Source: Vicinamibacteria bacterium | GTDB lineage: Bacteria > Acidobacteriota > Vicinamibacteria > Vicinamibacterales > JAENWD01 | Assembly (NCBI GenBank): GCA_963818215.1 | Contig: CAWFRL010000001.1 | Coordinates: 163,151 to 227,150 of the forward strand | Direction: 5' to 3' | Length of the DNA: 64,000 nucleotides | Part shown: positions 53,644 through 64,000 of the stretch, one piece after another | How the letters are laid out: each line of letters starts with the position of its first letter | How positions within the stretch are numbered: position 1 is the stretch's first letter | The notes under the pieces: generated by a model | The model's database searches: none | Told to the model about the DNA's origin: nothing | The model's input: the letters and a program-made list of their open reading frames with translations, nothing else | Made by a program: the position numbers and the translations under genes

Positions 53644-56239
53644 CGGAGGCCTGCGCCTCGAGCGGCAACGAGACATACGCTGACGCGCCGCCACCGGCCG
53701 CGTTGGCTGCCCACGCACGGCCCCCGTGGGCTCCGACGATTGTCCGCGACGATCGGCAGCCCCATCCCCATGCCGGAGGGTTTGGTGGTGAAAAATGGCT
53801 CGAACAAGGCCTCGGGCTCTTCGCCAACGCCGTGTCCGGTGTCGTGTACCACCACGAGCGCCGCCTCGTACGCGGATTCCGTGGTGATGGTCACCACACG
53901 GTGAGGCGGCTCGACCGCTGCCACGGCATCCATGGCGTTTGCGATGAGGTTCAGCAGCGCCTGTGCCAGCTGCACGCGGTCGCCAATCACGACGAGCGGC
54001 GTGCTCGTCAGGTGCGTGGTGAGTTGAATGCTTCGCACTCACCGCGTCGCTGTGCACCAGGTTCACGACGTCCCGCACGATGGCGTTGACGTCGACGCGC
54101 ACCTGCTCGGCCGGGCCCTTGCGAAGCAGCTCGCGAAGCCGCTGAATCACATCGCCTACGCGACGGTCGTCCTCGACGATGGCGCGAAGGATGCCGGAGA
54201 GGGCCTGCAGGTCGACATCGGGTGACGCCACCATGCGCTGCGGCCTCCTGGGCGTTGGCTCAGAATGCCGGTGAGCGGCTGGCTGACCTGGTGCGCGAGC
54301 GAGGCCGCGAATTCTCCCATGGCCGCCACTCGCGTGACCTGCGCCAGCTCCTCGCGGCTGCGCTGCGCGGAGCGTTCGGCGCGACGGCGCTGGGTGATCT
54401 CGGTGTGGGTCACGACGGCGCCGCCGTCGGCCCCGCCAAGCGGCACGACGGTCACGCGTGAACCAGCGATCGAGCGCGAGCGGACGCGCGCAGTACTCGA
54501 CCGGTCACGCCGGGGCTCGGTCCGGCCAGCACCACGTCCACGCCGTCGATGACGGCGCGGGCCTGAGACAGCCCTGCCCGCTCGACGGCGCGACAGTGCT
54601 CCGAGGTAGGAGCTCGACATCGGACCGGCCAGGGTGAGCGAGACTGCGATCGGCGCCAGCCCGCTCCCACTGCTGGTTGACGGCGACGACCTCGCCGCGC
54701 CGGTCGAGCACCGCCACCGCATTGGGCAAGGCGGCGAGGATGCCCGACTTCATCGCCTCGCTCTCGCGCAGCGCGCCGTCGGTCTGCTTTCTCGCAAGCG
54801 CGTTGCCGAAGACGTCGGCAGCCTGCCGCAGACGGTCGAGGACCTCCTGATCGCGCTGCCAGCCATCGGCCATCGCGAGACAGACCAGCCCGCCGATGAC
54901 CAGTCCGCCGACGACCAGCGGCATCGCCAGCGCGCGCGCACCGCGTGCTTCCAGCGTTCGACGGTCCGACGCCGCCTCGGCGGCAGTTCGTCCAGCGGCC
55001 ATGGCGACGTCTCGCTCGCCGAGCAACTGCGCCATCGACCACGGGCAGGACTCGCCCAGCGAGGTCATCCACGGCCTGGTGCGCTCGAGCGCGGTCCACG
55101 TCGCGACGGTCTGCGCGCGCCGCCGCCGGGCCGGAAACTCGAGCAGGACGAGGCCATCGAGGCCGATGAACCGGCCGAGGCGTTCAAGCGACGCCTCGAA
55201 GGCGCCAGGGATGTCGGCGGTTGGCACGTGCACGAAGCTCGCCGACACGCGCGCCAGCACCGCCTCGAACTCCAGCCGGTCGGCCAGGTCGACTCTGGCG
55301 CGGTAGCGCTCCTCGACCAGCGCGGCCAGGCACAGCAGCGGGATGGCGAGCATGATCAGAAACGCCTGCAGCGTCAGGACAGAGGCCTCTGCGGCGGCCG
55401 GGCTCGGTGTAGGCCGCATGGGCGATCGCGCTGTAGCACCGCCGACAATGCGGTCACGCAGCAGGGACAGGCTCGCGCCGGCAGTGCCGAACCTGACAGC
55501 GGCCCACAACAGGAACGGCAGCACGAGGACGAGCGGGGTGTGCACGGTGACCGGCAACCCGCCGACACGCACGACCAGGGGCGAGACGGCGAACTGGGCT
55601 GCCGTCGACCACGAGGCCGTCAGCGCTCCGGCTTCGAGCCAGCGACGCGGATGCGTCTGGCGGATCCATCGCGGAAGGTGCAGCCACAACACGAGCATCG
55701 CCGGCAGCAGCGCCAGCGTGGTCATGACGTTGGAGGCCACCCGCCGGCGCACGACGAGCGCGAAGGGCTCGCCCTGGAGCCAGTTCACCGCGCGGCGTCG
55801 GGAAACGACGACAGCAGCGGCGCGCCGACCGCCACGACGACGATGAACAGAGTCATGTGGCGCAGCGAGTCGATGCGGGGAGGCGTGCCACCAGCCAGCG
55901 GAAGGCACCGGCGCCAGCAATGGCCTCGAGGGAGTTGGTCGCGAAGAACGCGACGATGAGAAGCGGCGGCCAACCCGTGGCCGCCCTGAACGGCAAAGTG
56001 CGCCGACAGCGCCGCGGCAAGGCACCACGCCCACCGGCGCGGTGGGCGTCAGCATCAGCGCCAGCGTGAGGATGATGTTGGGCGGCCACATCACCGACGT
56101 CGTCGCCGGCGGAATGCGAAGGGCGAGGCCGACGCGCGACGCGATGTAGTACGCCGCGCACACGCCCACCATCAGCAGCGCCAGCCTGGTGGGGCCGGCG
56201 ATTCGGGAGGGTCGGCGTGCGCGCAGAGCTCAGTGCCAC
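53636..56239 (-). CDS. sensor histidine kinase (MASE1-like membrane domain, GAF/PAS region, HisKA, HATPase_c), at least 6 frame breaks; start 56172-56239
   Basis: YYIASRVGLALRIPPATTSVMWPPNIIL (MASE1-like). ESEAMKSGILAALPNAVAVLDRRGEVVAVNQQW (PAS). MGEFAASLAHQVSQPL (H-box). LLNLIANAMDA, DTGHGV, FEPFFTTKPSGMGMGLPIVRTIV. Stop 53636-53638 lies inside the mobA start region. Confidence 0.8.
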
Positions 56240-56251
56240 CGCGTCCGCCAG

Positions 56252-57908
56252 TCAGGGAGACGGTGAGAGACTCCGATCGATTCCCAGCAGGCGCCACCCG
56301 TCACCGCGGCGCCTGAAGTAGACGTCGACGGGGCGCGCGCCGTCGGAACCGGTCGCGGCGATCGTGATCTTCACGATGGCTCCGTCCTCCACTGGCAACG
56401 GCGACGGCGGCTCGAGCGATCCCGATCCGCGTGATGCGCCGAGAGGCTGAGTGGCATCGGTCCCGTTCTCATAGCGGAACCACCGTGCCTCGAAGCCGGC
56501 TTCGGGCGTGGCCACGCCTGCCGCCACCGCTTCATCGACAAACGTGAGGCGGCCAGCGCCGTCGAGCGCAAAGCGCGAGAGCGAGCTGACCTGGCGCAGG
56601 TAGGCGCGCGCAATCTTGTCGCGTCGTTTGATCAAGACGTCGCCAAGCAGCCGCTCGGCCGCAGGGTCTTCGTACTCACCCTGCTTGACCGCGGCGCGTA
56701 TCAGTTCGTCAGAGAAGGCCGCGACACGCAGCGCCGCCCAGAACGTATCGGCGGCATCCGCGCGCACGAAGGCGGCGGTGGGCACGCGGGGGCGCCACGC
56801 AGCCGGATCGAACCGGTCGCCCTCGAAGCGCCCGACCTCCGGCAGCTCCTGATACGGGATCGTCTGCCAGGGCCGCACGAAAAACCCGAAGCTCACGAGC
56901 CGCTTCCACATCGGCGTGCCTTCGTACAGATACTCGTAGCCCTCGTCCCACTCGCGCGGCCCGAGGGCGCCGGCGCCAAAGGTCGATCCGACGTCCTGCA
57001 GATAGTGCCGCACGATGCCACGGCCCTCGGCGCTGATGACGGTATCGAGCGTGTTGCCGGCCTTCATGTCGACCAGGTTGGTCCACGCGCCAAAGACTTT
57101 CAGCGCGCGCAGCTCGCGGCGGTGCTCGTGGGCGACCACGTCGTTGGGGTCGTCGGCGCGGGTGCCGTAGTACTTGAAAGGTCCGATCACCTTGCCCGGC
57201 ACCAGCAAACCTGCCGTCGCGCGATAGGTGCCGTCGGCGTCACGTGCCGCCCGCGCCAGCACGTCGTCGACATCGCCAGGCCGCATCGGGCGCTTGTGCT
57301 CCGCCCGCGTTTCGATGGTGGCGCCCTCGTCGATGGTGAGGTCGTCGCGTCGCAGGCGCAGCAGATGGGTTTCGATCTGGTTGTAGCCGAGCGCCCAGAA
57401 CAGCCGCACGGCCACGGCGACTGCGCTCGTCGCGGCACGCGGATGCCCGGCGGTATCGAACTGCACGAACCAGCGCACACCGCGGCTGTCGCGTGCCGTG
57501 AAGCCCGGCGACACGCCGCTGGTCTTGGCGCTCACGATGGTCCAGCGGCCCGGATGCCGGCGGCGGCGAGGCATTCGGACCCCGGGCGATCTCGTCGACG
57601 CTGACCGGCCGGGCGTAGATGCGGTTGGTGAACCAGCCCGAATCGGGAACCTCGTCGACGGTGTTCACGTTGACGGCCCGGACGTTGGCCGCGATGTCGC
57701 CCGGCCGGGTGAACAGGTTCAAGAGCAGGTCGGGCGCCAGCTCGATGTCCCTGTACTTCGCGCCGGACGCATCCTGGGTCTCGGGCTCGCGCGACAGCGG
57801 GTCGTCGGAGAAAAATCGCGGCTGCGCCGGGCCCTGCGCGCCAGCCAGGACGCTGCCGGCCAGCAGCAGGACCGAAAGGACCAACCAACGGGAAGAAGGC
57901 GCCGCCAT
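56252..57908 (-). CDS. secreted hypothetical protein with protein-kinase-like catalytic-loop motifs, frame broken near 57560
   Basis: ATG 57908 gives signal MAAPSSRWLVLSVLLLAGSVLAGAQG. SGWFTNRIY. WTNLVDMKAGNTLD (D-x-K-x-x-N) followed 25 residues later by YLQDVGSTFG (DxG). No family name recalled. Confidence 0.4.
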
Positions 57909-59095
57909 CAGAACGCCGCGCTCGACGAGAACACCGTGTTCCACCCCTCACTGCCCTTGGCCAGCTCGATCCGGATCACCGTGAGGCTCGGGCCGTGCAG
58001 GCGCAGGCCGATGCCGGCGTTGTGTTCGAGACCGGAGAAGCTCAGGTCGGCGCGGCGCGACGTCACCTTGCCGGTGTCGTAGAACAGCGCCATGTCCATG
58101 CCGAGGCGATTGGGAATCCAGCGAAACTCGCCGGAAGCCAGCAGGCTGTGCCGATCGCGGAAGCGCCGGCTGTTGAACGCGCGCAAGGTGCTGCTGCTGC
58201 CCAGTGACGGCATCAGGAAGTACGGCACGACATCGTCGTCGTCAACCGTCGTCTGCATGCGCGCGCGCAGCGACACGACCCAGGTTTCCCGAAGCAGCGG
58301 GATGTGCTGGACGCCCTCGACGTCGACCAGGTTGAAGCTGTAGGTGTGGTCGGGATCGATGTAGCTCACCAGTCCGGTCCCCAGGTAGCTGCCGACGCGC
58401 GAGTAGCCCGGCGTCGTCCTGGTATCGAATCCGACCCGCAGGTCCGTGTGCAGGAACGACGGGCTGTCGCCGAGCCCGGGGGCGGTCGCAGGCGTGTAGG
58501 CGTCGGTCACCGACTGCCGGTCGCCGGTCGGGTCTTTCAGCGAGTAATCCTCGAACCCTGCGGCAGCGCTTGCCCGAAACCAGGACGACGGCCGCCACAT
58601 GCCGGTAACCTGCGCGAAGGCCTGCTGGAACCTGAAGTCGGCGCGGTCGGAGACGTCCGTGTCCATGCCGAGGCCGTAGTAGCCGACCCGCGTGGCGTCA
58701 CGCCATCCCACGGTGGCGCCAAAGGTGACACGCTCCTTGGGATGCACGCTGGACACCACGTCGAACTCGATCAGCTTGTACCGCTTGGTGGAATACAACC
58801 CGCGGACGATCCAGAGCGAGTGGTCCGCGAATGCCCGCCGGTACCCGGCGCCGAGCGTGAAGCCGCCACCGCCGTAGACGCTGTCGAAGTACGGGATGAA
58901 GCCGCTGGGGCGTTCGGTGAGCAGCCGCTGCTGGATCCAGTCGGTCACCAGCTCGGCCTTGGACAGTACCTGCGGGGCGTTTGCCGCGGCCTTGGCCGCC
59001 TGTTGCGCTGCAATCAATCCGGCGCGCGTTTCCTGCGCGTGCGAGGACGGTGCCAGCGCCAGCAGGAGCGACGTGATGACGAGTGGTCGAACCAC
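57908..59095 (-). CDS. Omp85/surface-antigen-type outer-membrane beta-barrel protein
   Basis: Signal MVRPLVITSLLLALAPSSHAQ, alternating beta-strand pattern, GEFRWIP, GIGLRL, terminal aromatic residue (SSSAAF). Intact 395 codons. Stop overlaps the next start (ATGA at 57908). Confidence 0.55.
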   Translation of the reverse strand: MVRPLVITSLLLALAPSSHAQETRAGLIAAQQAAKAAANAPQVLSKAELVTDWIQQRLLTERPSGFIPYFDSVYGGGGFTLGAGYRRAFADHSLWIVRGLYSTKRYKLIEFDVVSSVHPKERVTFGATVGWRDATRVGYYGLGMDTDVSDRADFRFQQAFAQVTGMWRPSSWFRASAAAGFEDYSLKDPTGDRQSVTDAYTPATAPGLGDSPSFLHTDLRVGFDTRTTPGYSRVGSYLGTGLVSYIDPDHTYSFNLVDVEGVQHIPLLRETWVVSLRARMQTTVDDDDVVPYFLMPSLGSSSTLRAFNSRRFRDRHSLLASGEFRWIPNRLGMDMALFYDTGKVTSRRADLSFSGLEHNAGIGLRLHGPSLTVIRIELAKGSEGWNTVFSSSAAF

Positions 59096-59115
59096 GCCGA
59101 CATTCTAAGCGGCAA

Positions 59116-59868
59116 TTATCTTCGTCGGAGTCGAGACTTTTCGCTCACGGCCTTCTTGAGGGATTGAATCTCGGCCGCGGTCAGGTCGCGCACCTGACCC
59201 GGACGCATGCGGTCGTCTCGCAGCGGGCCAATGCGCACACGTGTGAGGCGCTGGACCGGGTGCCCCACCGCCTCGCACATCCGCCGCACCTGGCGGTTGC
59301 GTCCCTCGCGTATGGTGAGCATCAGCACCGCCGACTGCGCCGCGACGTCGCGGTCGGCCGGCGCGACGCGCACGACCGCCGGCGCCGTGCGCCGCCCGTC
59401 GAGCACGACCCCGCGCGCCAGGCGGTCCAGCGCGCGGGTGTCGGGGACGCCGGCGACCTGCGCGCGATACTCGCGCTCGACCTCGTGGCTCGGGTGCGTC
59501 AAGGCGGCCGCGAGATCGCCGTCATTGGTCACCAGCAGCAAGCCCTCCGAGTCGTAGTCCAGGCGGCCGACGGGATAGACGTACTCGCGGACGCTGCCAA
59601 GCAGGTCCATCACGGTCTTGCGCTTTTGCGGGTCGTTCCGCGTCGTGACGTACCCGCGGGGCTTGTAGACCAGCAGGTAGCGCAGCGTCTGCACCGGCTT
59701 GATGCGGCGGCCGTCCACGCGAATCTCGTCGGCGGCAGGATCGGCCTTCGTGCCCAGCGCGGTGACCGTGGCGCCGTTCACTGACACGCGGCCCTGCTGG
59801 ATCAGCTCCTCGGCCGTGCGTCGGGAGGCCACGCCCGCCGCCGACAACACCTTCTGCAGTCGTTCCAT
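59116..59868 (-). CDS. rluB: 23S rRNA pseudouridine synthase (RluB/RsuA family) with S4 domain
   Basis: MERLQKVLSAAGVASRRTAEELIQQGRVSVNG, YLLVYKPRGYVTT, VGRLDYDSEGLLLVTNDG, REGRNRQVRRM. Intact frame. Confidence 0.85.
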   Translation of the reverse strand: MERLQKVLSAAGVASRRTAEELIQQGRVSVNGATVTALGTKADPAADEIRVDGRRIKPVQTLRYLLVYKPRGYVTTRNDPQKRKTVMDLLGSVREYVYPVGRLDYDSEGLLLVTNDGDLAAALTHPSHEVEREYRAQVAGVPDTRALDRLARGVVLDGRRTAPAVVRVAPADRDVAAQSAVLMLTIREGRNRQVRRMCEAVGHPVQRLTRVRIGPLRDDRMRPGQVRDLTAAEIQSLKKAVSEKSRLRRR

Positions 59869-59869
59869 G

Positions 59870-60679
59870 TCAGCGGTGCGCCTCGAGGCGCTCGGCAATG
59901 GCTTGCCTTCTCGGGTCCACCGGCTCGTCGAGCGGATCGACCGCGCCTTCGCCGGTGATCACCGCGCGGTCTTCTTCGGTGGCGGGCTCGTCGGGTGTGG
60001 AAGCGTCGCCTGCTCGGCCAGTCCCACCGGCGGCTCGAAGCCCAGCGCGTCGGCCATGTCTTCGACCTTCGGCAGGTCGGTGAGGTCCTTCAGGCCGAAC
60101 CGATCCAGGAATTCGCGCGTCGTCCCGTAGAGGAACGGACGGCCGACCACCTGCTTGCGGCCCGTGATCTTCACCAGGCCGCGCTCGAGCAGCGTGCCGA
60201 CGACGCCGGTCGTGTTGACGCCGCGGATCTCGGTGACTTCCATCGCCGTGATCGGCTGCTTGTAGGCGATGACGGCCAGCGTCTCGAGTGCCTGCACCGA
60301 CAGCTTCTGCGACGTGCGCTCGTGGAACAACCGGCGGACCCACTCGTGCAGCTCCGGCCTGGTGACGATCTGATAGCCGCCGGCGACCTCGACACACTGC
60401 AGCCCGCCGGAATGCGAGTAGCGCCGCGCCAGCTCGGCCAGGGCCGCCACGCACGTCCTCTTTCGGCTCGGTGTCGAGCACCTTGCACAGCTGCTTCAGC
60501 GTGATCGGATCCGGCGAGGCGAAGACGAGCGCTTCGACGATCCCCACCAGCCCGAGGCATCCGCGGTCGCCGGCTCGTCGTCTGCGCGCCGGCGCGGTGA
60601 TCAACGAGTCGACGGAGACGCCTCGCCCTGCTGCCAGCCGTCGCTCGTCAGATTCTGGGATGTGCGTCTCGTCGCTCAC
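59870..60679 (-). CDS. scpB: SMC-ScpAB complex subunit ScpB, frame broken near 60460 and 59990
   Basis: GTG 60679 overlaps the scpA stop (GTGA). IVEALVFASPDPITLKQL, GGYQIVTRPE, LSVQALETLAVIAYKQPITAMEVTEIRGV, GRPFLYGTTREFLDRFGL. Confidence 0.85.
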   Translation of the reverse strand: MSDETHIPESDERRLAAGRGVSVDSLITAPARRRRAGDRGCLGLVGIVEALVFASPDPITLKQLCKVLDTEPKEDVRGGPGRAGAALLAFRRAAVCRGRRRLSDRHQAGAARVGPPVVPRAHVAEAVGAGTRDAGRHRLQAADHGDGSHRDPRRQHDRRRRHAARARPGEDHGPQAGGRPSVPLRDDARIPGSVRPEGPHRPAEGRRHGRRAGLRAAGGTGRAGDASTPDEPATEEDRAVITGEGAVDPLDEPVDPRRQAIAERLEAHR

Positions 60680-61528
60680 GACTCGGTCTCCGGCTTCTTG
60701 GGGTGGTGCGCGTCGTACACCGCTTCGGGATCCATGATCGGATGCGGCGCATCCTGCGGCCGCGCGCGCTTGTACACGCGAATCGGCCCGAACGACCCGG
60801 CCTGGAACACGCGTATCAGCTTCAGCCGAATCATCTCGAGCAGCGCGAGGAACGTCACGATGAGCGCCGGGCGCGAGTTGGCATCCGCAAACAGCTCTTC
60901 GAAGCCGCACCGCCTCGGTTTCCGACAGCCGCTCGAGCAGCTGCTCGATGCGCTGCTCGATCGACATCTGCTCGGGCGGCAGCAGCATCTGCGGCCGTGC
61001 CTTGGCCCGCTCGAGCACGCCGCGGAACGCCGCCAGCAGGCTGAACAGGTCCACTTCGAGCTCGGGCTCGTAGTCGTCGCCCGCCACGTCGGCCACGGCG
61101 CGCGTCGGGCCGGTGCTACTGCGCGGCGCGCAGCGTCTGGCGCTCGTGCAGCAGCTCGGCGGCCGCCTTGAACTTCTGGTGCTCGAGCAGCCGGCGGACC
61201 AGCGCCTCGCGCGGGTCCTCTTCGTCTTCTTCGCCGGGGATGTCCGCGGTCGGCCGGGGAATCAGCAGCCGCGACTTGATGTGGATCAGCGTCGCGGCCA
61301 TGACGATGAACTCGCCGGCGACATCGAGGTTCAGCTCCTGCATCAGCGGCGAGGTACTGCAGGTACTGCTCGGTGATGAGGGCGATCGGGATGTCGTAGA
61401 TGTTCACCTCGCTGCGTCTTGATGAGGTGAATCAGGAGGTCGAGCGGCCCCTCGAAGCTGTCGAGCTTGACGGGATACGCCTCGAGGGCGGACTCGAACT
61501 CTCGCGGCGGCTGCTCGGGCTGGCGCAT
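60676..61528 (-). CDS. scpA: segregation and condensation protein ScpA, about 4 frame breaks
   Basis: ATG 61528: [104 protein letters not shown]. Confidence 0.85.
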
Positions 61529-61533
61529 CGCAT

Positions 61534-62545
61534 CTACGTAGGTACCTTGCAGCTTCATCGCGTCTCTGACGCGCTCCATCGTCGCCGCGGCTTCCGCGCG
61601 CGCCTTCTTCGATCCCTCGAACAGCACGTCGCGCAATAGCCAGGCCGCGCCAGCGCCGCCGGCGCGCCGCTCGCGCATCGGATCGAGCATCGCGTTGACG
61701 GCGGTCGCCAGCTTCGTCTTGACCTCCACGTCACCCACTTTGCCAAGACGATAGCGCGTCTTCAAGTCCTCGACCTCGTCGAGGTTGGGGTTGAAGGCGT
61801 CGTGGTAGAGGAACACGGGGTTGCCTTCGACCGTGCCCGGGATATCGGCGCGGATCCGCTTTGGATCCGTGTACATCTGCCGCACCTTCTTCTGCACCGT
61901 CACCGCATCGTCAGACAGGTCGATGGTGTTGCCGTAGCTCTTGCTCATCTTCCGGTTGTCGAGCCCGGGCAGCCGCGGCACCGGCGTGAGCAAGGCCTGC
62001 GGCTCGGGGAACACCTCGCCGTAGAAGTTGTTGAACCGGCGCACGATCTCGCGCGACAGCTCCAGGTGCGGCACCTGGTCGTCGCCAACCGGCACGAAGT
62101 TGGCGTGGTAGACGATCACGTCGGCCGTTTGCAGCAGCGGATAGCCGAGGAAGCCAAACGAGGACAGGTCGCGCTCGGTGAGCTGCTCGATCTGCTCCTT
62201 GTAGGTGGGCACACGCTCGAGCCACGGAATCGGCGTGATCATCCCGAGCAGCAACGCCAGCTCGGCATGCTCGGGCACCAGCGACTGGATGAAGAGCGTC
62301 GAGCGCTCGGGGTCCAGCCCGGCGGCGATCCAGTCGGCGGCGTTGTCGAGGGCGCTGTCGACAATCTCGCCGGTATCGGCGTAGTGGCTCGTCAGGGCGT
62401 GCCAGTCGGCCACGAAGTAGTAGCACCGGTAGGTCTCCTGCAGGGCGACCCAGTTCTTGAGGGCGCCCACCAGATGTCCGAGGTGCAATTTGCCGGTTGG
62501 GCGCATGCCCGAGACGACACGACGACGGTTAGCGGGTTCGGTCAC
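61534..62545 (-). CDS. trpS: tryptophan--tRNA ligase; the stop codon is not in frame in this assembly, so the ORF runs on into scpA
   Basis: GTG 62545: [18 protein letters not shown] (HIGH-type), [34 protein letters not shown] (KMSKS). Homology ends at [10 protein letters not shown] one-base change near 61545 would expose TAG at 61534-61536. Confidence 0.9.
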
Positions 62546-62573
62546 GATGCAAACGTGTAGCGTACGACGAACG

Positions 62574-62588
62574 TTGCGACTGTCGCAA
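62574..62588. promoter_or_regulatory. perfect 7-1-7 palindrome upstream of trpS (operator or 5' hairpin candidate)
   Basis: TTGCGAC-T-GTCGCAA at 62574-62588, 29-43 nt upstream of the trpS GTG. On the minus strand TTGCGA, an 18-nt spacer and TACGCT could also be read as a weak promoter. Confidence 0.3.
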
Positions 62589-62597
62589 GAAATTAGT

Positions 62598-62657
62598 GGG
62601 ATTTGATTGGATTGCGCAGGCCAATCATCCGCAGATTTCGCAGATTTCGCAGATGCT
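62598..62657. repeat. short arrays GATTG x3 and GCAGATTTC x3
   Basis: gggatttgattggattgcgcaggccaatcatccgcagatttcgcagatttcgcagatg, upstream of trpS. This is the last normal-looking sequence before the compositional break. Confidence 0.75.
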
Positions 62658-62738
62658 GCCTGGGTGATTAGACGACTAGCGCCGGCGGGAGGTCGGCTGT
62701 TTGTGGAGAAGGGTGATGATTAGATACTATGGTTGCGC

Positions 62739-62991
62739 TTTGATGGGTGGTTGGTGGGTTGTGTTTGTTGGGTGGGGGGTGTGTGTGTAGTTGTTGTGGT
62801 TTTGTGTGTGATGTGTGTGTGGTGTGTTGTGTGTGTTTGGTGTGTGGTTTGGTAGTTGTGTTATGTTTTTGGTAGTGTGTAGGTTTGTTTATGGTTGGGG
62901 TGGAGATTGTGTTTTGGATAGTAGAGTTTTGGTGGTGTTGTTGTAGAGGGTTGTTGTGTTTGGTGGTGTTGGTTTGTATGATTGTGGTGGG
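62739..62991. other. 253-nt tract with no cytosine on the plus strand (about 93% G+T)
   Basis: Hand count: the last C before the tract is at 62738 and the next is at 62992; about 18 A in between. Low-complexity GT/GGT/GTT runs with no clear period. Confidence 0.9.
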
Positions 62992-64000
62992 CGTGTTGAG
63001 AGTCGGCATGAGAGGAGCTGAGAGAAGTGTACGACGGCAGATGCCGGTAGATTCAGAGTCGATTCAGCTGAGGCCCGGCCGACCTGGTCGCACTGGGTAG
63101 CTAGGCTCGAAAGGTGTGAGTGATGAAGTGTTGTGTATTTGTGTGTGGAGATATATGTATTATAATAGGTTATAGTGTATATGTGCTAGTCCGCGCGTGC
63201 TGGGACGCCGGACTCGGAACGAGGAAAGATATATCGTGCGGCATTCTCTACATCGGGTGCGTCGCTAAGCCGTGCAGTCGGAGCTGGAGTAATAGCGGTT
63301 AGATCCAACTATCAGCACGCTCTAGACAGGTCGTGAGAGGATGACACTGAAAGACAAGCGGAGATTATGGTAGAAGATGAGAGAGATGGAACTGCAATAA
63401 GCGACAGAAGTCGTAGAGTCTAGAAGCGTGTCGAAGCGGAAATTTGCGAGCCGCTGAGAGACGCGCGTGTGGGATAGCGATAGAGTTTTCGACGACGCGG
63501 CGTTGCGTGGTCTGGCGCGAAGAGTGACGCCGCGGAGTGCCGAGAGGCCGATAGTGAGAAACGAGATATGAGCCGAGCCAGTAGAGACGTGACGTTCGTG
63601 ACATGGGGATTTGAGGGTGTGAGAGTAGACGATCAGCTTGTGCGGCGACGCTGAGAATGTGCGAACTGCTTGCGTTCTGCTGTGTTCAGCAGAAGAGGTA
63701 GGCTGGACACTACGCGATTCGGCGCATCACGTGTGCCGGTGTTAGTGTGGAGTGAAGACGTACGGGCGGAAAGAACCTGCAGGCGCTTGCAGGCGAGTTC
63801 GCGTGAACACGCGGGCCGATAATCGTCAGATGATTTGGCGAGGTATTCGAATGGAGCAATGACGCGCTCAGGGTCGAGAGTTCGAGACCCCTGCCGGCTT
63901 CATAAACAGAACGGAAGGTGGCTGAGCGTGAAAAAAGCTGGAACGCCGGCGCGAGAAAAGGCGAGCGTCGCGGTGAGCGCGTGAGGCCTACGGCGCGATA
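62992..64000. other. ORF-poor, purine-skewed, lower-GC sequence of unknown nature running to the window edge
   Basis: In the lines I counted, GC is about 43-55% and A+G about 62-72% on the plus strand. A second C-free patch lies at 63109-63185 (A/T/G only). No ORF of 60 aa or more on either strand after 63604, whereas the rest of the window is saturated with ORFs. Confidence 0.8.

Follow-up and report, generated by a model that had tools for sequence, protein, structure and literature searches.

Low-complexity junk reads, glitches and chimeras are standard defects in the long-read benchmark literature, as modelled by Badread-type tools (PMC6966772). The DNA considered here is the right-hand end of a 64,000-nt window, the whole stretch analysed, from a contig assigned to the Vicinamibacteria. 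Like those artefacts it has biased, low-complexity sequence without a homolog in the collections searched and a sudden onset after good sequence; the contig around it is rich in indels, and another contig of the lineage ends at the same place. It differs from them in being long (at least 1.3 kb), in being of low complexity in part only and in a junction at which no adapter was found. The Nanopore SV caller Svirlpool filters 'ONT-specific artifacts', which are short GT-rich or AT-rich subsequences (bioRxiv 10.1101/2025.11.03.686231). A 253-nt G/T tract and a 77-nt A/T-rich patch in the window have both of the named compositions, but the filtered artefacts are short and occur per read, whereas here the sequence is in a consensus and inside a longer skewed stretch of at least 1.3 kb.

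The other described counterpart is hypermutation, whether by bisulfite or by deaminases (APOBEC, DddA/SsdA-like toxins, fungal RIP). It shares with the tract total loss of C from one strand and enrichment in T. From the comparisons set out below, the segment from 62687 to at least 64000 is most probably junk or mis-basecalled long-read sequence, kept by the assembly in a thinly covered stretch or at a contig tip; the G/T tract and the 1.3 kb that follow probably do not reflect the biology of this genome.

Composition of the right-hand end

Over 62701-64000 GC is 0.53 and the purine fraction of the plus strand is 0.59, compared with 0.69 and 0.49 over 1-62700. A sequence-only reading of the window had described about 70% GC left of the break, with GC near 50% and a plus-strand purine excess beyond it, and all of this is borne out. 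From 62687 to 64000 the composition departs from anything seen in the other 62.5 kb. It has two C-free runs, at 62739-62991 (253 nt) and 63109-63185 (77 nt). Both had been given the same coordinates earlier, and the G+T content of about 93% then ascribed to the first is measured at 92.9%. The six longest C-free runs of the 64-kb window are all within 62587-63629; outside that interval every C-free run is shorter than 27 nt, and the longest G-free run is 19 nt.

On the plus strand the stretch opens with a C-poor segment at 62687-62738, where similarity to the related contig L082 (see below) is gone and the 50-nt bin 62701-62750 holds 3 C. The C-free G/T tract that follows (62739-62991) has A.071, G.447 and T.482. 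It is irregular: TRF finds degenerate periods of 2-25 with 70-80% matches and no clean tandem repeat. An island of mixed composition, 117 nt long (62992-63108; A.21, C.22, G.38, T.19), separates it from the second C-free patch (63109-63185; A.27, G.325, T.40), in which dinucleotides alternate strongly. The remainder, 63186-64000, is purine-rich, C-depleted and ORF-poor up to the window edge, with GC skew 0.27, purine fraction 0.61 and GC 0.57. In 815-nt windows taken from 1-62500 the absolute skew does not exceed 0.156, the purine fraction is 0.416-0.580 and GC is at least 0.607, and 63186-64000 is beyond all three.

The near-absence of ORFs that had been remarked on at this edge is also found on recount, the ORFs being short. 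The longest, of 113 aa, is on the minus strand of the tract and owes its length to the lack of G in that complement, which leaves TAA as the sole possible stop.

The break upstream of trpS and the condition of the contig

The last normal gene before the break is a genuine trpS (61343-62545, minus strand), as judged by TrpS identity and by tblastn to the proteins of the loci L003 and L081. Its product is 82-84% identical to TrpS from MAGs of the Vicinamibacterales (Acidobacteriota), many of which were assembled from soil with Nanopore reads only, and it adjoins scpA, scpB and rluB, all on the minus strand. The intergenic DNA upstream of trpS (62546-62686) is genuine too. An inverted-repeat end of a MITE-like element lies within it, and it is homologous to L081 as far as 62632 and to L082 as far as 62686.

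The first of these, L081, is a 7.4-kb sister contig (ENA ERZ25039469 contig_115068), obtained by exact-protein look-up with RluB and 96-97% identical to window 56214-62632. It ends about 160 nt upstream of trpS, and its first 30 nt are the final codons of uvrC with the stop (...YFAG*, one indel); this stop and the start of trpS are 130 nt apart. Since L081 ends at the same spot, an independent contig has an assembly breakpoint here. The second, L082, is a metagenome contig of 1791 bp, the one found with a conserved 27-mer from the trpS leader. It is 88% identical to the window, aligns with 62484-62686 and then stops. Over the 150 nt before 62687 identity to it is 87% in plain bases and 97% in R/Y recoding. 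After 62686 identity to its continuation is at chance in every alphabet: 0.20 in plain bases where 0.23 is expected, and chance values of 0.48 in R/Y and 0.36 in C-to-T recoding. Judged from this alignment, the break is abrupt and total, at 62686/62687. The abrupt switch reported near 62,700 therefore stands as to its suddenness but not its location; comparison with the relative moves it from 62700 or 62739 to 62686/62687.

What had been called a lineage-type repeat array upstream of trpS turns out to be CGCAGATTT, present in 2.8 copies at 62630-62654, which is the terminal inverted repeat of a hairpin-rich MITE-like element of about 270 nt. Beyond the position of the break L082 continues with a GC-rich palindrome, more hairpins, an inverted copy of the CGCAGATTT-containing repeat and the 3′ end of uvrC. 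The element thus lies between uvrC and trpS in L082 (1402-1657). At least its trpS-proximal end is in the window (62620-62686), and the 96.5%-identical sister contig L081 is without it. Among related loci uvrC is beside trpS in 70 of 80 and an M50 peptidase gene is likewise found there in 68 of 80; neither is detectable anywhere in the window. The end of homology, the layout of L082 and L081 and the loss of uvrC together indicate that the anomalous sequence fills the place of the remainder of the repeat element and of uvrC. [An ORF at L082:140-1357 combines a response-regulator receiver domain with the HhH-bearing C-terminus of UvrC, which suggests that the uvrC region of that contig may itself be rearranged or mis-assembled.]

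The variability of the locus, with the MITE-like element in L082 and the window and not in L081, is one of the points in favour of a real strain-specific insertion, in which foreign, strand-asymmetric non-coding DNA, 1.3 kb or longer and forming one end of a mobile element or island, would have entered the MITE-like element that separates uvrC from trpS. Insertions are known to target hairpin or REP-like elements, and this too counts for an insertion. The searches described in the next section weigh on the other side.

The contig itself is error-prone. Compared with the L003 and L081 proteins there are at least nine frame changes in four conserved genes: four in the 870 nt of scpA, two in scpB and one or two in each of two downstream genes. 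They cluster at window 59900-61420 and 56700-57900 and spare trpS, rluB and an outer-membrane gene of 395 aa. Alignment with L081 shows 34 gap events in 6.4 kb, again clustered, with 8 of them, for instance, within 61504-61550. An error-prone assembly with widespread indels, as had been suspected, is thereby confirmed. The final 630 nt before the break have no gaps compared with the sister strain L081, so there is no gradual fall in quality. On the strength of these frame and gap counts the window is clearly an uncorrected long-read consensus, and the contig a low-accuracy long-read metagenome contig, probably Nanopore with Flye. Related MAGs are Nanopore-only assemblies made with Flye and one round of Medaka, and are said to keep indels; the name of L081, in an ENA assembly, is Flye-style.

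Two features of the neighbouring genes may be recorded here. In the window (61343-62545, minus strand) and in L081:161-1972 trpS runs through into the frameshifted scpA, and the read-through is called as one protein of 603 aa with tRNA-synt_1b and SMC_ScpA domains, while in L003 trpS and scpA are separate with a 4-nt overlap. The read-through is either a real fusion in the species or a shared systematic indel error. In addition, L081:2735-3529, about 790 nt between scpB and rluB, is missing from the window; it has three small ORFs, one with faint ankyrin matches.

Searches for relatives and the biological readings

No DNA relative of the anomalous stretch was found in 80-82 related loci or in the remaining window in any of five alphabets, and neither strand of 1-62500 matches it as a fold-back or duplicate of its own contig would. 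Plasmids and phages gave nothing past chance matches of 30-40 nt. Exact words from the stretch are absent from metagenome and viral collections, and a 28-mer from 62992-63108 is unmatched in the metagenome collection. At the protein level no ORF of the stretch has a Pfam match, and the concatenated six-frame translation of 62992-64000 has no relative in 5.8 billion clusters. Exact-protein look-ups with two ORFs inside the anomaly found no record of either. The homology searches thus covered related loci, plasmids, phages, metagenome and viral collections, Pfam and protein clusters.

Another reading is that the trpS upstream region was joined, by a mis-join or a chimeric read, to genuine non-coding DNA of another organism, such as microsatellite-like DNA of a eukaryote rich in (TG)n and (GA)n, which would still be an assembly artefact. 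Chimeric reads are a documented long-read problem (PMC6966772), the break is sudden after clean sequence, and in the right part a GC of 0.57 with GT/GA/TA alternation recalls eukaryotic low-complexity DNA. Against it, no DNA or protein relative turned up in the collections searched, though eukaryotic genomes were not among them; strand asymmetry over 1.3 kb with two C-free patches is unusual even in eukaryotic intergenic DNA; and the pipeline of the related MAGs discards eukaryotic contigs. Such a join is an unlikely origin.

For the real insertion, the same searches bear directly. No transposase, integrase or other element gene was detected in the stretch by the Pfam, six-frame protein and phage/plasmid searches, nor any other ORF, homolog or RNA family that would speak for one. 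In the 1.3 Mb of related loci no run free of C or of G is as long as 60 nt. Two points on the opposite side involve tRNA-Thr. One is the occurrence of natural G-rich non-coding arms next to tRNA-Thr in the related genomes L065 and L066, and the other a weak tRNA-Thr-like stretch in the window itself.

The arms are at L065:250-1030 and L066:300-904, in chromosome-scale Vicinamibacterales MAGs. They are about 500-650 nt of non-coding, G-rich and C-poor DNA with GC skew 0.40-0.57, and for L065:250-900 and L066:300-800 G is.52-.54, C.18-.20 and GC 70-76%. The two cannot be aligned with one another. Both are immediately 3′ of tRNA-Thr(CGT), about 1 kb from uvrA, and are followed by short direct repeats (TGCCAGCCGT, three copies; ATGCACCCTA, two copies); each resembles one arm of an integrated, iteron-bearing element. 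They resemble the anomalous stretch in being non-coding, strongly skewed towards G over C, several hundred nt long and of the same lineage. Unlike it, they have normal GC, 18-20% C and C-free runs that all stay below 60 nt, and in sequence they are not similar to it. They are also 3′ of an intact tRNA, and the orientation of their skew relative to that tRNA is opposite to the window's. A third skewed region, G/T-rich, at L078:2340-2690 in another related genome, is a coding 15-nt tandem repeat of GATGTCCGGGTTGGT in about 23 copies. As counterparts of the window's tract all three were set aside: none resembles it, and in L078 the skew is that of a coding repeat.

The weak resemblance, to the full length of tRNA-Thr(CGT) as found in relatives, is at 63836-63903 on the plus strand, with a local score of 18, and serves as a lead only. 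As a corrupted tRNA-Thr the alignment is persuasive by eye but has many gaps, and it is called neither by ARAGORN nor by Rfam. A score of at least 18 was reached by 5 of 300 shuffles and by 4 of 94 ordinary window chunks (p about 0.02-0.04). The candidate was rejected, and the likeness is not significant as an argument for insertion. More generally, ARAGORN finds no tRNA or tmRNA in the stretch, and the Rfam scan has no tRNA at E<=1. Taken with the base-level statistics given in the last section, these results make a real insertion a rather doubtful explanation.

A large structured non-coding RNA locus, whose transcript would be C-less (from the plus strand) or G-less (from the minus strand), would suit a region so poor in ORFs. 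When 63186-64000 was folded and compared with 20 shuffles, the plus strand had z=-2.1, and a few perfect short hairpins are present there. On the minus strand z=-1.0, however, and the hairpin count is not above that in shuffles (p~0.1). With E<=1 Rfam returned SAM-SAH only, at E=0.38 and a chance-level 19.7 bits, far below the gathering score, which is 40. With no relative in the 82 loci or the searched collections there is, in turn, no conservation or covariation to argue for an RNA, and this origin is barely credible. The suggestion of a foreign insertion or large RNA locus had been made from the sequence alone; neither an Rfam family nor a conserved relative nor a six-frame protein match backs it, and the folding z is weak.

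The remaining biological reading is strand-specific, near-complete C-to-T conversion of native GC-rich DNA, with or without A-to-G changes, by a deaminase or by chemical damage. Two observations fit it. At 0.518 the tract's purine fraction agrees with that of the genome (0.49 +/- 0.03), which is what transitions alone would leave, and in the 40 nt before the break several of the differences from L082 remove a C. The base composition does not fit. Conversion had been expected to yield roughly G 35/T 50/A 15, and the tract has too much G and too little A for this: its G of 0.447 is higher than in every 253-nt window among some 124,000 on both strands (maximum 0.439), and its A of 0.071 is in the lowest 0.3% of genome windows. 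The purine excess of the right-hand 815 nt is also beyond what transitions can produce.

Recoding of the sequence led to the same result. Matches in C-to-T and R/Y recoding to 80 loci (uvrC included), to the rest of the window and to L082 are at shuffle level, against 159-447 for trpS controls; the R/Y recoding would absorb A-to-G changes as well. When BLAST was run against 80-82 loci and the rest of the window with C-to-T, R/Y, K/M and C-to-A recodings, nothing rose above shuffles, the trpS controls being at 127-695. [The K/M recoding relates to another idea, dropout in a two-colour or two-amplitude detector that would confuse G/T with A/C, and that idea was dropped on its negative outcome.] Period-3 is absent from the tract (p=0.77), while an in-silico converted trpS control of the same length keeps its signal (1e-5). 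Base and R/Y patterns were both tested, and the test bears on deamination only if the source DNA was coding. The sequence-only reading had named as grounds for giving up the conversion idea that the reverted sequence should show neither a homolog nor coding-like periodicity. After recoding, identity is at chance and there is no period-3, and on that ground the idea falls. From known hypermutation by APOBEC, DddA/SsdA-type enzymes or RIP the tract differs accordingly in its high G, its low A and its lack of residual homology or periodicity, and the adjoining 815 nt differ in a purine excess that transitions could not attain. Conversion is an extremely improbable origin, and even taken together conversion and an RNA locus have very little probability.

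Noise-like statistics and the source of the stretch

At the level of single steps the anomalous sequence behaves differently from the genome around it. In 63186-64000 the same base follows itself with a frequency of 0.18, against 0.27 expected from composition, so that homopolymer steps are few. Lag-2 identity is 0.31 where 0.27 is expected; in the genome the relation is the opposite, 0.24 versus 0.29. The lag-3 signal of coding DNA that the genome carries is gone from this segment. In the second C-free patch (63109-63185) the departures are larger, lag-2 identity being 0.52 and lag-1 identity 0.16, each against 0.34 expected, and alternating GT/GA/TA steps are frequent in the stretch as a whole. 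Not one of 6578 815-nt windows from the 82 related loci has a lag-2 excess of 0.04 or more without a lag-3 excess. The output statistics are noise-like and basecaller-like. The combination of homopolymer deficit and lag-2 excess, found in no 815-nt window of related genomes, also counts against a real insertion.

The likeliest source of the stretch is a degraded and wrongly basecalled segment ('junk' or 'glitch') from one or a few reads, perhaps at a chimeric joint or at the tip of a contig, and the assembler may have kept it because good reads at the site were too few for polishing to override it. At the level of reads the mechanism would be a chimera, or a signal that degraded within one read. 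A basecalling or assembly artefact, or a chimeric contig end, was one of three origins that had been listed without ranking. It fits the indel-ridden contig, the break at the site of the sister's uvrC, the lack of a homolog in the searched collections and the noise statistics. The ranking can now be supplied in so far as the artefact is supported, conversion fails, and an RNA locus or foreign insertion gains no positive support.

Several findings count against an artefact. The 630 nt before the break are gapless, the length is at least 1.3 kb, and the plus strand has the folding z=-2.1 given above. At the junction no adapter alignment scored above shuffled-adapter controls; junk or glitch segments need not carry adapters. 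Natural non-coding DNA with a strong skew towards G is also present in two related genomes, where C makes up 18-20%.

It is highly unlikely that the tract is real, that is, that a non-coding element of at least 1.3 kb, with 253 bp in which every G:C pair has its G on the same strand, was inserted into the hairpin element between uvrC and trpS. We know of no precedent for a perfectly strand-segregated 253-bp G/T tract in a bacterium of 70% GC. If real, the tract would have arisen by a strand-specific mutational or synthetic process of an unknown kind, or it would be a template from which a C-less or G-less transcript is made. An example of such a process would be non-templated or telomerase-like addition of G and T, with the G/T strand running 5′ to 3′ away from trpS. 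A real tract would in this way point to a mutational or synthetic process as yet unknown. If, as is likely, it is an artefact, it marks a spot in a public-style long-read MAG that needs trimming or re-polishing, and similar spots could be screened for by base-free runs of more than 60 nt, by lag-2 excess with loss of lag-3 and by a break of synteny with a sister strain.
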